A stretch of DNA of 9,395 nucleotides from a virus (IMGVR_UViG_2690316166_000023); one strand, 5' to 3'; shown: positions 487-7,938, numbered from the stretch's first letter. The notes: a model not told the origin generated them from the sequence alone. Program-made: numbers and translations.

Positions 487-2799
487 NNNNNNNNNNNNNN
501 NNNNNNNNNNNNNNNNNNNNNNNNNNNNNNNNNNNNNNNNNNNNNNNNNNNNNNNNNNNNNNNNNNNNNNNNNNNNNNNNNNNNNNNNNNNNNNNNNNNN
601 NNNNNNNNNNNNNNNNNNNNNNNNNNNNNNNNNNNNNNNNNNNNNNNNNNNNNNNNNNNNNNNNNTCTGAATATCATTATATACTTGCAGCCGTCACCCA
701 TGCTCCANNNNNNNNNNNNNNNNNNNNNNNNNNNNNNNNNNNNNNNNNNNNNNNNNNNNNNNNNNNNNNNNNNNNNNNNNNNNNNNNNNNNNNNNNNNNN
801 NNNNNNNNNNNNNNNNNNNNNNNNNNNNNNNNNNNNNNNNNNNNNNNNNNNNNNNNNNNNNNNNNNNNNNNNNNNNNNNNNNNNNNNNNNNNNNNNNNNN
901 NNNNNNNNNNNNNNNNNNNNNNNNNNNNNNNNNNNNNNNNNNNNNNNNNNNNNNNNNNNNNNNNNNNNNNNNNNNNNNNNNNNNNNNNNNNNNNNNNNNN
1001 NNNNNNNNNNNNNNNNNNNNNNNNNNNNNNNNNNNNNNNNNNNNNNNNNNNNNNNNNNNNNNNNNNNNNNNNNNNNNNNNNNNNNNNNNNNNNNNNNNNN
1101 NNNNNNNNNNNNNNNNNNNNNNNNNNNNNNNNNNNNNNNNNNNNNNNNNNNNNNNNNNNNNNNNNNNNNNNNNNNNNNNNNNNNNNNNNNNNNNNNNNNN
1201 NNNNNNNNNNNNNNNNNNNNNNNNNNNNNNNNNNNNNNNNNNNNNNNNNNNNNNNNNNNNNNNNNNNNNNNNNNNNNNNNNNNNNNNNNNNNNNNNNNNN
1301 NNNNNNNNNNNNNNNNNNNNNNNNNNNNNNNNNNNNNNNNNNNNNNNNNNNNNNNNNNNNNNNNNNNNNNNNNNNNNNNNNNNNNNNNNNNNNNNNNNNN
1401 NNNNNNNNNNNNNNNNNNNNNNNNNNNNNNNNNNNNNNNNNNNNNNNNNNNNNNNNNNNNNNNNNNNNNNNNNNNNNNNNNNNNNNNNNNNNNNNNNNNN
1501 NNNNNNNNNNNNNNNNNNNNNNNNNNNNNNNNNNNNNNNNNNNNNNNNNNNNNNNNNNNNNNNNNNNNNNNNNNNNNNNNNNNNNNNNNNNNNNNNNNNN
1601 NNNNNNNNNNNNNNNNNNNNNNNNNNNNNNNNNNNNNNNNNNNNNNNNNNNNNNNNNNNNNNNNNNNNNNNNNNNNNNNNNNNNNNNNNNNNNNNNNNNN
1701 NNNNNNNNNNNNNNNNNNNNNNNNNNNNNNNNNNNNNNNNNNNNNNNNNNNNNNNNNNNNNNNNNNNNNNNNNNNNNNNNNNNNNNNNNNNNNNNNNNNN
1801 NNNNNNNNNNNNNNNNNNNNNNNNNNNNNNNNNNNNNNATTCAGCAGTTCGGCCTGGANNNNNNNNNNNNNNNNNNNNNNNNNNNNNNNNNNNNNNNNNN
1901 NNNNNNNNNNNNNNNNNNNNNNNNNNNNNNNNNNNNNNNNNNNNNNNNNNNNNNNNNNNNNNNNNNNNNNNNNNNNNNNNNNNNNNNNNNNNNNNNNNNN
2001 NNNNNNNNNNNNNNNNNNNNNNNNNNNNNNNNNNNNNNNNNNNNNNNNNNNNNNNNNNNNNNNNNNNNNNNNNNNNNNNNNNNNNNNNNNNNNNNNNNNN
2101 NNNNNNNNNNNNNNNNNNNNNNNNNNNNNNNNNNNNNNNNNNNNNNNNNNNNNNNNNNNNNNNNNNNNNNNNNNNNNNNNNNNNNNNNNNNNNNNNNNNN
2201 NNNNNNNNNNNNNNNNNNNNNNNNNNNNNNNNNNNNNNNNNNNNNNNNNNNNNNNNNNNNNNNNNNNNNNNNNNNNNNNNNNNNNNNNNNNNNNNNNNNN
2301 NNNNNNNNNNNNNNNNNNNNNNNNNNNNNNNNNNNNNNNNNNNNNNNNNNNNNNNNNCGCTGTCGCTCCGTGAGGGTGGCTCCGGCCATATCACACTCGG
2401 GAAGCCCGAGATAACGCTCCCAGTCTTCCAGCAGCAGGCGCGACGTNNNNNNNNNNNNNNNNNNNNNNNNNNNNNNNNNNNNNNNNNNNNNNNNNNNNNN
2501 NNNNNNNNNNNNNNNNNNNNNNNNNNNNNNNNNNNNNNNNNNNNNNNNNNNNNNNNNNNNNNNNNNNNNNNNNNNNNNNNNNNNNNNNNNNNNNNNNNNN
2601 NNNNNNNNNNNNNNNNNNNNNNNNNNNNNNNNNNNNNNNNNNNNNNNNNNNNNNNNNNNNNNNNNNNNNNNNNNNNNNNNNNNNNNNNNNNNNNNNNNNN
2701 NNNNNNNNNNNNNNNNNNNNNNNNNNNNNNNNNNNNNNNNNNNNNNNNNNNNNNNNNNNNNNNNNNNNNNNNNNNNNNNNNNNNNNNNNNNNNNNNNNN
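487..2799. other. N-masked / undetermined sequence: four N runs (487-665, 708-1838, 1859-2357, 2447-2799) separated by short real islands (666-707, 1839-1858, 2358-2446)
   Basis: Directly visible runs of n. ORF-track entries crossing this block are poly-X and cannot be trusted, since stop codons may be hidden. Context implies tail-fibre coding on the minus strand. Confidence 0.99.
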
Positions 2800-2934
2800 C
2801 CTGCGTCCCGTCAAAGGGAACCCCATTAATATTTCTTGGGGTGGCGAGTCTATTCGCGGCAACGGCGGTGCCGTCCGATGGCAGAGCATTCGCCGCCCTG
2901 TTTACCGTTTCCCGTAAACCGAGGTTTTCAGGAA
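2800..2934 (-). CDS. 5' portion of a tail-fibre variable (C-terminal) segment that begins at the crossover site and has no start codon of its own; continues leftward into masked sequence
   Basis: Minus-strand frame with first codon bases at 2938, 2935, ... reads NRVNPGFPENLGLRETVNRAANALPSDGTAVAANRLATPRNINGVPFDGTQ. The LGL-ETVNRA-N motif is, as I recall it, the conserved junction of P2 H / Mu S / P1 S-type tail fibres. In-frame TAA at 2954-2956 immediately upstream and no ATG/GTG/TTG before the masked block. Confidence 0.5.
2909..2934. other. Site-specific recombination crossover site for the adjacent invertase (gix/pix/hix/cix-type, 12-2-12 imperfect dyad)
   Basis: TTCCCGTAAACC-GA-GGTTTTCAGGAA; the right half is the reverse complement of TTCCTGAAAACC, almost identical to the left half. 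Closely resembles the Mu gix site as I recall it (TTCCTGTAAACCGAGGTTTTGGATAA). Lies 65 bp upstream of the invertase start and inside the tail-fibre motif. Confidence 0.75.
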
Positions 2935-3572: not shown

Positions 3573-3657
3573 CGCTTTTTTGAATTTCCGCAAAACACAT
3601 ATTTTTCAGCGGTCGCTATTCTGACTCTGTTTAATTCAGAAACAGGCAGAAAAGACG

Positions 3658-6074: not shown

Positions 6075-6329
6075 ATGCCAGAAATTAAAGGCACCGTCAC
6101 TGAAGACCTGGTAAAACAGGCACTGTATTCCGGTGAAGTAAATAAGTTGCTGAAAGCGCAGGTCCGCAAGGATTTTGAGGCACAAATCGACACTTACGTT
6201 GATGAAGTGCTGGCAAAACTTATTGGGCCAGCAGTTGCGGCCAGTGATGCTGATAATGAGCCGAAAACCGACGCGCAGCCAGAGCAACCAGACCCGGCTC
6301 AGCCCGGAACTGACAGTACCATGATGTAA
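6075..6329 (+). CDS. Small hypothetical acidic protein (84 aa): helical N-terminus and an Asp/Glu/Pro/Gln-rich, probably disordered, C-terminus
   Basis: ATG 6075 with near-consensus ribosome-binding site AAGGAGG (6062-6068, 6-nt spacer); 35 nt downstream of the previous ORF on the same strand, so probably one operon. No family recognised. Confidence 0.6.
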   Translation: MPEIKGTVTEDLVKQALYSGEVNKLLKAQVRKDFEAQIDTYVDEVLAKLIGPAVAASDADNEPKTDAQPEQPDPAQPGTDSTMM

Positions 6330-6386: not shown

Positions 6387-6427
6387 CTATCCAGCCATAT
6401 GTAATCGCTGGATAGTATTTCGTATTC
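6387..6427 (+). terminator. Candidate intrinsic terminator for the two-gene small operon
   Basis: Inverted repeat CTATCCAGC (6387-6395) / GCTGGATAG (6407-6415), 11-nt loop, followed by T-rich TATTTCGTATTC. A second imperfect hairpin sits at about 6335-6360. Confidence 0.35.
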
Positions 6428-6496: not shown

Positions 6497-6790
6497 TTAG
6501 TCCGATTCACGCTTTTGTAGAATCGTTCCCAGAATGCTATACAGCTCATTAGCCTGTTGCTCCATCATTGAGACGGAGGCTATACGGTGCAAAGTGATTT
6601 CAGGAGGTGGCACACCTCCATCTTCTTGCTGTGGAGGAAAAACATAAGATTTAATAAAAAAGTTGAAGCATATGAACTCTCCCGCACTCGAACTGTATTT
6701 GCAGGCATCTGAATAATCGGAAAAATAATCATTATAGATTTCCGCATTTTCAATCATTTTTCGATTTCTCGTCGTTACATGATTGTCCAT
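6497..6790 (-). CDS. Hypothetical protein (97 aa), AT-rich, transcribed divergently from com-mom
   Basis: Minus-strand ATG at 6790-6788 with AAGAGG 5 nt upstream (complement of about 6796-6801). MDNHVTTRNRKMIENAEIYNDYFSDYSDACKYSS...; no family recognised. Composition appears more AT-rich than the flanking genes. Confidence 0.55.
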   Translation of the reverse strand: MDNHVTTRNRKMIENAEIYNDYFSDYSDACKYSSSAGEFICFNFFIKSYVFPPQQEDGGVPPPEITLHRIASVSMMEQQANELYSILGTILQKRESD

Positions 6791-6978
6791 AGCAGCCTCT
6801 TACGCTGGCAATTAACCAATTGACTTCTATAAATTAGTTGATTTGTTTGCTTTGCGGTATTCAAATGTACAATCATTCAGCACTTATGCGTTACAGCACC
6901 GTTTAAAATTAGTGATCAAACTCATAAATTTTCGCTAATGACATTTCGTGTTATTTGTTGTATCAATTAAATAAATCA

Positions 6979-7003
6979 AATCGATCGTTTTTGTCGATCG
7001 ATT
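6979..7003. promoter_or_regulatory. Palindromic operator-like element with two Dam (GATC) sites upstream of com-mom
   Basis: AATCGATCG-tttttgt-CGATCGATT: 9-bp arms in perfect inverted repeat, GATC at 6984-6987 and 6996-6999, a third GATC at 6914-6917. About 45-65 bp upstream of the com start. Mu mom is known to be controlled through clustered GATC sites whose methylation blocks OxyR binding. Confidence 0.45.
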
Positions 7004-7046
7004 GAGTGATAAAGATATCAACAACAAAGCAGGAGGTTATGCGGCC

Positions 7047-7247
7047 ATGTATCGAAACATACGGTGCCGACATTGTAACAAGCTACTGGCACGAGCCAGC
7101 TTCAGTTATCTGGAAGTTAAATGTCCGCGCTGTAAAACCCTCAATCAAATCACATCTCAGAGCGCCACAGAGCACCCCACATACACAAGGAAATCCTGTC
7201 GTGGGGAACAGAAAGCAAGTTACATCCCGTATCATCAGCACGCCTGA
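7047..7247 (+). CDS. com: Com-like zinc-finger translational activator
   Basis: 66-aa ORF, ATG 7047 ten nt after AGGAGG (7031-7036). [30 protein letters not shown]... has the Cys-X2-Cys...Cys-X2-Cys pattern and aligns block-wise with Mu Com as I recall it (MKSIRCKNCNKLL...IEIRCPRCK...). Its 3' end overlaps the following mom-like frame. The ORF-track start at 7002 is a TTG extension. Confidence 0.8.
7175..7206 (+). promoter_or_regulatory. RNA hairpin that would sequester the putative mom GTG start codon and its ribosome-binding site (candidate Com-responsive translational switch)
   Basis: CCCCAC (7175-7180) is the exact complement of GTGGGG (7201-7206); the 20-nt loop holds AAGGAAA; the GTG at 7201-7203 is in the mom frame and inside the 3' arm. 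It lies inside the 3' end of com, the arrangement known for Mu. Confidence 0.4.
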
Positions 7248-7938
7248 ACTTATTCACTATAACGACAATATCGTCGGTTATGGCTCCCGTGAGTTACGGG
7301 TTGAGACAATAAGTTGCTGGCTGGCCCGGCTGGTCGTCGTCAATAAACATTACAGCCATCGTTTCGTAAATAATTCCTACCTTCATCTGGGCATATTTTC
7401 AGAACGGGAGCTGGTTGGCGTAATGCAATGGGGTTATGCCCTTAATCCAAACAATGGTGCACGCGTCGTAACTGGCACGCAGAACCGCGAATATATGGAG
7501 CTTAACCGGTTATGGCTGCATGACTGTATGCCGAGAAACTCCGAATCAAGGGCAATCAGTTACGCGCTCAAACTAATCAGACAACTTTATCCGCAGGTGC
7601 AGTGGGTTCAGTCGTTTGCAGATGAGCGTTGTGGCTGTCTTGGTGTCGTGTACCAGGCAAGCAATTTTGATTATGTAGGCAGTCATGAAACAACATTCTA
7701 TGAACTTGATGGCGAGTGGTATCACGAGATTTGCAAGAATGCAATCAAACGAGGAGGACAGCGAGGTGAACATCTGCGGGCTAATATCGACAGAGCCAGT
7801 GTTCATAAATTCCGTCAGTTTCGTTACATCCGGTTTCTGGACAAGAGAGCCAGAAAACGCCTTAACACAAAGCTATTCAAAGTCCAGCCTTACCCAAAAC
7901 CACAAACAGTTAAAACTGGTTTGAAAGAGAGTGAATGA
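7201..7938 (+). CDS. mom: Mom-like DNA modification protein (adenine-modifying, acyltransferase-like); start uncertain: GTG 7201 proposed, maximal ORF begins at 7006
   Basis: Long ORF ending at 7938 that overlaps com in another frame, which is the signature com-mom arrangement. GTG 7201 has AAGGA 8 nt upstream and sits in the hairpin, giving 245 aa (Mu Mom is about 230 aa). Assignment rests on context; I cannot recall Mom sequence well enough to align it. Confidence 0.6.

Follow-up and report, generated by a model that had tools for sequence, protein, structure and literature searches.

What does a perfect palindrome with a Dam target site in each arm do immediately upstream of the com gene of an E. 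coli prophage? The palindrome lies in a viral stretch of 9,395 nucleotides (IMGVR_UViG_2690316166_000023), here called the window, which has 100% identity to prophages in the chromosomes of many E. coli strains; the host genes at the insertion differ between them. The window forms the right end of a transposable, Mu-like prophage. This prophage carries a transposase, GemA, only one gene of the Mor family, head and tail genes of the Mu type and an invertase. In the window a truncated host glycosyl-hydrolase gene comes after mom. Four runs are masked with N (487-665, 708-1838, 1859-2357 and 2447-2799), and because of this masking the apparent open reading frames at 685-2373 (plus strand) and 694-2889 (minus strand) are artefacts.

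The gene behind the palindrome is com (7047-7247, plus strand), coding for the zinc-ribbon translational activator of mom. It is recognized by Pfam (PF10122 Zn_ribbon_Com, 7.5e-13), by PHROG (gpCom control of modification) and by RefSeq (Com family) and its product is 45% identical to Mu Com. The gene mom (7201-7938, plus strand) codes for the DNA adenine modification enzyme (Pfam PF25680 Mom, 1.6e-77; 78% identity to Mu Mom; also named in RefSeq). Both genes overlap at 7201-7247. The locus is a com-mom operon in which the gene for the Com zinc ribbon overlaps the start of a Mom-family gene. The Shine-Dalgarno sequence of com (AGGAGG, 7031-7036, plus strand) is nearly invariant in the window's clade, with a single variant at 7033. 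The reading frame of mom is open upstream to 7006 (an open reading frame of 310 amino acids) and contains an ATG at 7039, just after the Shine-Dalgarno sequence of com, with the com ATG coming 8 nt later. The start that RefSeq assigns to mom is the GTG at 7201.

The palindrome at 6979-7003 reads AATCGATCG-TTTTTGT-CGATCGATT. Its arms (6979-6987 and 6995-7003) are 9 nt long, perfectly complementary and separated by a spacer of 7 nt. Pairing does not extend further, as an A at 6978 faces a G at 7004. The com start codon follows 43 bp past the palindrome, and in this respect the sequence is as the initial annotation had described it: a perfect palindrome with 9-bp arms and two GATC sites just upstream of com. 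The left-arm GATC (6983-6986) and the right-arm GATC (6996-6999) are 13 bp apart, the same spacing as in phage Mu, in agn43 and in both gtr pairs. The annotation had further drawn a third GATC about 70 bp upstream into the control of the operon. This site is indeed present at 6914-6917, 69 bp upstream of the palindromic pair, but the operator role given to it is doubtful. It is found only in the window and in one other locus (L041), is missing from the other clade members and is at none of the offsets at which a third GATC recurs (18-19 or 31 bp); it is therefore probably outside the operator and irrelevant. For the same reasons, lack of conservation and a wrong offset, we rejected it as a third operator site and as a third half-site of the gtr type.

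The window contains only one other perfect inverted repeat of 9 nt (gctatccag-N11-ctggatagt, 6387-6415). It sits between the convergent DUF826 gene (6075-6329, plus strand) and an open reading frame at 6497-6790 (minus strand) and may be a bidirectional terminator. We also considered the palindrome as an operator of this divergent open reading frame and rejected the idea: neither Pfam nor PHROG assigns its product to a family, a DNA-binding signature is lacking, and the frame and the dyad are not conserved together.

How unusual is the palindrome? When the window is simulated 300 times with a first-order Markov model, the probability that some perfect inverted repeat arises whose arms measure at least 9 nt and whose loop measures 3-12 nt is about 0.20. 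In simulations of the same kind (n = 300) any GATC pair exactly 13 bp apart arises with a probability of about 0.09 and three GATC sites within 87 bp with a probability of about 0.5. Inside the window the palindrome is only modestly unusual, and it is the comparison across loci that decides against chance. For this comparison about 100 loci encoding relatives of Mom were collected and com was then located in each of them. Both GATC sites are kept in all 26 loci of the window's clade, where 6979-6999 is invariant and a single variant occurs at 7000, in L044. The two longest invariant blocks upstream of com in this clade are 6952-6968 and 6979-6999, which match the two half-sites described below, and the most variable stretch is 7004-7016. 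Beyond the clade, all enterobacterial com lineages have GATC-N9-GATC(G/A)AT upstream of com or have one of the two GATC sites swapped at the same position; the left-arm site is present in every lineage that has the pair. The 9-nt spacer between the GATC sites and the flanks of the pair vary freely among the com lineages. The constraint is on the GATC sites and on the half-site positions and not on the stem, since the spacer is free between lineages, the stem is weaker outside the clade and in L044 the arm is broken and the GATC is kept.

As far as is known, Dam is confined to the enterobacteria and their relatives, and hosts of the Pseudomonas and Burkholderia type are taken to be without Dam. 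The com loci of Pseudomonas (PAN70, JD024, B3), Burkholderia (phiE255), Neptunomonas and similar hosts lack a GATC pair in front of com, and most of them lack any GATC there. The host range of the pair fits a Dam-dependent element. In E. coli, dam and oxyR are both core genes. Several of the non-enteric com loci (L109-L112, L010-L012 and L068 from Pseudomonas, Burkholderia, Neptunomonas and others) have a conserved, structured-looking leader about 100 nt upstream of com. This leader, '...ccagccaaggcc.tccc...gagcctagca...', occupies the place of the GATC operator; a scan of three of these loci (L109, L111 and L010) found no Rfam family in it.

The shape of the dyad recalls the binding site of OxyR. 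At the gtr operon of P22 the half-site bound by an OxyR dimer has the consensus ATAGxTxxxAxCTAT, and the GATC pairs 13 bp apart are inside one half-site (PMC2909390). Scored against the OxyR dimer consensus ATAGnTnnnAnCTAT, the 15-mer ATCGTTTTTGTCGAT at 6984-6998 of the window matches 7 of 10 positions, and 9 of 10 if the C/G substitutions needed for the GATC sites are allowed. We regard gATCG-N7-CGATc as most likely one OxyR-dimer half-site with a Dam site in each arm where the canonical site has ATAG and CTAT. The whole of 6979-7003 would then be a promoter-proximal half-site of the OxyR type together with its flanks, as is also suggested by the alignment with the Mu GATC2/GATC3 pair and by the match to the agn43 core. 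In three lineages (L009, L069 and L005) one GATC is replaced at the same position by a sequence nearer to the OxyR consensus, which is CTAT in L005 and L009.

OxyR binds as a dimer of dimers and a second half-site is therefore expected; counted from start to start, its distance in the OxyR/Dam class is 31-32 bp, with 22 bp in the compact mode. The best candidate in the window is ATTTGTTGTATCAAT at 6953-6967, a distal OxyR-type half-site without GATC which matches 7 of 10 positions and begins 31 bp upstream of the proximal one. It falls within the clade-invariant block 6952-6968. For each of 11 lineages we scored the match to the OxyR consensus at every offset from the GATC pair. Despite their differing sequences, the best upstream offset is -31 in 10 of them and -32 in the remaining one. 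At -31 the strict score averages 5.73, against 2.8 ± 0.68 across all offsets (z = 4.3). The individual matches, 7 of 10 each, are moderate and, because the region is AT-rich, not rare locally: about 3% of the positions in 6791-7046 reach such a match in the relaxed score, which counts the substitutions that create a GATC as matches too. The distal site also accounts for the third GATC of other lineages, which is found either 18-19 bp or 31 bp from the pair, since these spacings correspond to the right and the left arm of the distal site, respectively. In L035 a deletion of 1 nt between the half-sites (aatt-aacaaa) shortens the spacing from 31 to 30 bp. The dyad had been taken as a sign of a dimeric binding protein. 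The dimer as such is retained, most simply as one dimer of an OxyR tetramer, and what had gone unseen is the second half-site 31 bp upstream.

Where is the promoter? A sigma-70 scan reported no promoter on the plus strand, and the sequence leaves three candidates, whose starts would be near 6973, 7022 and 7028. The one best conserved in the clade consists of ATGACA (6938-6943) and TATCAA (6961-6966) with 17 nt between them (6938-6966, plus strand). Its hexamers are conserved except for the last base of the first (A or T at 6943), its spacer is variable, and it is exactly at ATGAC that the two upstream variants of the clade become homologous. The scan missed this candidate because its -10 hexamer is without the final T. 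Its use would put the start near 6973 and the operator at about -20 to +26, similar to agn43. An alternative candidate (6991-7021, plus strand) is TTGTCG followed after 19 nt by TATCAA (7016-7021); the distance between the motif YATCAW and the dyad is constant in the clade. With this promoter the second GATC would be at about -33, as is GATC4 of gtr. The compact layout is common to the window's clade, L049-L051, L006, L114, L165 and the isolated phage Chuche. Most compact lineages have a good -10 sequence (TATACT, TATAGT, TATCAT or TGnTAGATT) 11-18 nt past the last GATC, which would set the dyad at about -36 to -20; in the window's clade this stretch is degenerate and variable. Three of these loci (L049, L050 and L051) have a leader hairpin with compensatory changes (GCCAC...GTGGC versus GCCG...CGGC) just upstream of the com ribosome binding site.

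The late activator of Mu must also be considered. Mu C binds a site that overlaps the mom promoter (PMC4461284). The single Mor-family protein of our prophage, encoded at 29059-29481 of L004, is an orthologue of C, with 40% identity to Mu C and 28% to Mor. The Mu C site TTAT-N6-ATAACC does not occur upstream of com in the window, and a C-dependent promoter of the Mu Pmom type is not found there. The regions upstream of lys, the protease gene and the tailspike gene share in two sister phages the motif TTTYTGAWNTYCCGCAAA and, 21-23 nt further on, a -10-like TAnnnT. This combination is the probable late-promoter element of the prophage. Copies are found in the window at 3576-3598 (plus strand) and in L004 at 29054, 20867 and 4902; the tailspike gene is of the DUF6645/SASA type. 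A copy that is one nucleotide shorter lies at about 6847-6869 on the minus strand and points at the open reading frame 6497-6790, which may thus be a late gene. A matrix of the motif gives no plus-strand match in 6791-7046 (best 5.8 bits against 27 for real sites), and the motif is likewise absent from the plus strand upstream of com in the sister phage, which is 90-95% identical over most of the genome. No late-activator site was found that would confine expression to the lytic cycle.

We suggest that the palindrome forms the half nearer to the promoter in a bipartite OxyR operator (6953-6967 and 6984-6998) which is blocked by Dam methylation and guards com-mom, and we consider this reading probable. 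With both GATC sites unmethylated an OxyR tetramer would occupy both half-sites; hemimethylated DNA may permit binding too. The operator is only 43 bp away from the com start codon and must therefore overlap the core promoter of com-mom or the first transcribed bases, so that bound OxyR would block RNA polymerase sterically. Methylation of the two GATC sites by Dam would keep OxyR off and com-mom would be transcribed. That OxyR binds, that methylation blocks it, where the promoter lies and in which direction the switch works are all what we infer from the sequence, and since the transcription start has been placed in this way the proposed steric repression depends on that promoter. Each of the candidate promoters would imply direct steric repression by OxyR, as opposed to Mu, whose operator precedes the activator site. 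Here the control by methylation might be weaker or might work differently, as the distal half-site is without GATC and Mu and agn43 have three such sites. It is also conceivable, though rather unlikely in our opinion, that the Dam/OxyR switch alone governs the com cassette, with the operator on the core promoter and the C site lost; expression could then be phase-variable in lysogens.

Could the dyad instead be the operator of a dimeric regulator encoded by the phage, for example a late activator of the C/Mor type, with the GATC sites being incidental or modulating? The prophage does encode the C-type protein described above, no further activator site can be recognized in front of com, and if the promoter were just downstream, as in L049-L051, L006 and Chuche, the dyad would be roughly at the position of C in Mu. 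Presumably Mu C lies at about -57 to -28 of Pmom. Such a regulator is very unlikely for several reasons. In the locus holding the prophage of about 39 kb the dyad is the sole GATC-N9-GATC and the sole ATCG-N7-CGAT; being unique it is not a general late-promoter element of the phage. The apparent late-promoter motif is different and absent upstream of com, Mu has the GATC pair beside the C site and not in its stead, and the pair also occurs at agn43 and gtr, where there is no phage activator. The divergent neighbour, lacking a DNA-binding signature and co-conservation with the dyad, does not offer itself as the regulator either. The GATC pair could also work without OxyR, either because methylation alters the binding of RNA polymerase, as with the -35 GATC of IS10, or because SeqA binds the hemimethylated pair. 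SeqA binds GATC pairs over a range of spacings that includes 13 bp. The GATC sites are the most strictly conserved bases, and one of them abuts the -35 hexamer of the alternative candidate promoter (6991-7021). Left unexplained are the conserved half-site positions outside the GATC sites, the half-site at -31 which has no GATC, and the replacements toward the OxyR consensus in L009, L069 and L005. We judge it very unlikely that the pair functions entirely without OxyR; a direct effect of methylation or SeqA could possibly act in addition to OxyR.

A further explanation takes the palindrome as a hairpin, be it an intrinsic terminator on the minus strand against transcription from the right end of the prophage or a stem-loop in the 5′ leader of the com mRNA. 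A terminator scan reports a minus-strand stem of 9 bp with 4 G-C pairs followed by the tail TGATTTATTT, RNA folding gives -11.3 kcal/mol for the plus strand and -10.3 kcal/mol for the minus strand, and use of the upstream candidate promoter would place the stem close to the 5′ end of the transcript. But no minus-strand gene converges on the palindrome or ends there, and com and mom are on the plus strand. With 4 of 9 pairs being G-C, no gene end and a stem that is not conserved, the structure does not qualify as an intrinsic terminator. The stem reaches -11 kcal/mol in this clade only and -3 to -9 kcal/mol in other lineages. L044, a close relative, has its arm broken by a change that spares the GATC. 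More generally, spacer and arms drift where the GATC sites are fixed, and the palindrome matches no Rfam family. A function as hairpin is thus highly improbable. Finally, the palindrome might be a chance product of an AT-rich intergenic region, in line with the weak statistics inside the window (about 0.2 for the inverted repeat and about 0.09 for the GATC pair). Its recurrence at the same place upstream of com across lineages, with the GATC pair in 26 of 26 clade loci, effectively refutes this reading, to which we give hardly any credence.

The putative OxyR/Dam operator recurs as a module. The exact core ATCGATCG-N7-CGATCGAT is found in 59 IMG/VR loci, 30 of which are associated with com. 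In a sister phage, the Stx-inserted Mu-like phage, operator and com stand before a C5-cytosine methylase gene (L172, 38060-39266; PF00145, 1.4e-37), and in phage Chuche they stand before an N6/N4 methylase gene (L108, 492-1168). Several of the core loci without com are AT-rich, have a GATC triplet with spacings of 13 and 18/19 bp and are located before phage glycosyltransferase genes of the GT25 or GT2 type, beside a D12 (Dam-type) methylase (L132 605-627, L159 1007-1029, L124 13135-13157, L137/L163 and L138/L157). Judged by their sequence these dyads are probably further OxyR/Dam switches similar to gtr.

Mom homologues of about 70% identity in phages of the Yersinia and Serratia type are without com and without the GATC pair. 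Directly before mom stands, at several of these com-less loci, a gene for tRNA-Gly(TCC) or the 3′ fragment of a tRNA, and then a GC-rich conserved element about 110 nt long (L086 633-706, L088 1310-1384, L094 1306-1379, L097 1218-1291, L101 1306-1379; L013 about 1290-1400). RefSeq names Mom a 'tRNA(Gly)-dependent adenine aminoacyltransferase'. The tRNA before mom may be left over from an integration site, or it may reflect a functional link.

Taken together, the Dam/OxyR control of Mu mom appears to be conserved as a module: two OxyR half-sites at a distance of 31-32 bp, with a GATC pair spaced by 13 bp in one of them. The module spans many enterobacterial Mu-like phages and stays with com whichever DNA-modification enzyme comes next. 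It amounts to a simple sequence rule by which prophage genes under Dam/OxyR control might be predicted.

How does the operator compare with the systems already known? The closest relative is Mu. The operator of Mu mom is reportedly bound by OxyR (MomR) and is said to contain three Dam sites. Upstream of com Mu reads gacGATCgaatcaattaaatcGATCggtaatacaGATCgatt, which contains AATCGATCg-N7-aGATCGATT; the arms are perfect over 8 bp in Mu and over 9 bp in the window. The Mu GATC2/GATC3 dyad aligns with the dyad of the window, with a spacing of 13 bp in both and at a homologous position upstream of com-mom. We take the aligned Mu region to be the one at which OxyR represses mom unless Dam methylates the GATC sites. 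The initial annotation had seen a parallel with the control of Mu mom, that is, a repressor whose binding to clustered GATC sites is sensitive to methylation. Because the dyads align, this parallel is one of homology and not of analogy, and methylation-sensitive repression is the explanation that best accounts for the sequence. The Mu distal half-site ATAGAAAACGACGAT lies 31 bp upstream and bears GATC1, whereas its counterpart in the window, ATTTGTTGTATCAAT, has no GATC. The layouts also differ downstream. The last GATC is 51 bp away from the com ATG in the window and 78 bp in Mu, so that the operator is about 26-27 bp nearer to com. Mu has the C-binding dyad TTATgccccAATAA and the promoter between the last GATC and com; in the window no C-type site is detectable, and the Mu segment that contains the C site (TTATgccccAATAACC) together with the -35 region has no counterpart. 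The C site of Mu is itself dyad-symmetric and near the com-mom promoter, but with its TTAT-N6-ATAACC it is unlike the dyad of the window.

The second known system is agn43 (flu) of E. coli, which reads TTATCGATCG-tttatat-CGATCGATAA with perfect arms of 10 bp. The 8-bp core ATCGATCG/CGATCGAT is identical to that of the window, the T-rich spacer has the same length of 7 nt and the 15-mer ATCGTTTATATCGAT is comparable to ATCGTTTTTGTCGAT of the window. The distal half-site ATAGAATAAAACGAT is 32 bp upstream, and there are three GATC sites versus two in the window. The agn43 operator spans the annotated 5′ end of the IsrC RNA, which we take as the transcription start (about -12 to +35). This layout resembles that of the window if the conserved upstream candidate promoter is the real one. 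The two differ in what they control, as agn43 is a chromosomal adhesin gene (in CP4-44) with documented phase variation and the operon of the window serves DNA modification in a phage and is not known to be phase-variable.

In the third system, P22 gtr, the half-sites are 32 bp apart and Dam methylation abolishes OxyR binding in EMSA (PMC2909390, Broadbent et al. 2010). The promoter-proximal GATC pair extends into the -35 region, where GATC4 is located at -33 (PMC2909390), and this geometry matches that of the window if the candidate promoter TTGTCG/TATCAA (6991-7021) is used. Of the gtr half-sites A (ATCGGTAACAACGAT), B (ATAGATAAAAACTAT) and C (ATCGCTTGTATCGAT), A and C have the same form as the proximal half-site of the window. 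Three half-sites and four GATC sites allow gtr to alternate between an activating (AB) and a repressing (BC) occupancy. The window has two half-sites and two GATC sites and, unlike gtr, would be expected to show the repressing mode alone. The cluster of three GATC sites with one in the distal half-site, a feature of Mu and agn43, is absent from the window. Such a cluster does not define the class, since each pair-bearing half-site of gtr has two GATC sites and half-site B has none.

The palindrome had been thought to represent an operator design related to but distinct from that of Mu. We do not agree, as Mu, agn43 and the P22 gtr half-sites A and C all have this form. The dyad follows the textbook OxyR/Dam design and in all likelihood represents just one more copy of an established switch. 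Apart from the layout variant, the palindrome is an expected feature of a com-mom operon. The variant itself, with the operator on or next to the core promoter, two GATC sites and no detectable C site, leaves a modest chance of a purely epigenetic and perhaps phase-variable control of a toxic DNA-modification gene in lysogens. If this were true, subpopulations of E. coli would heritably switch a prophage DNA-modification enzyme on and off, in the same way as agn43 and gtr are switched.
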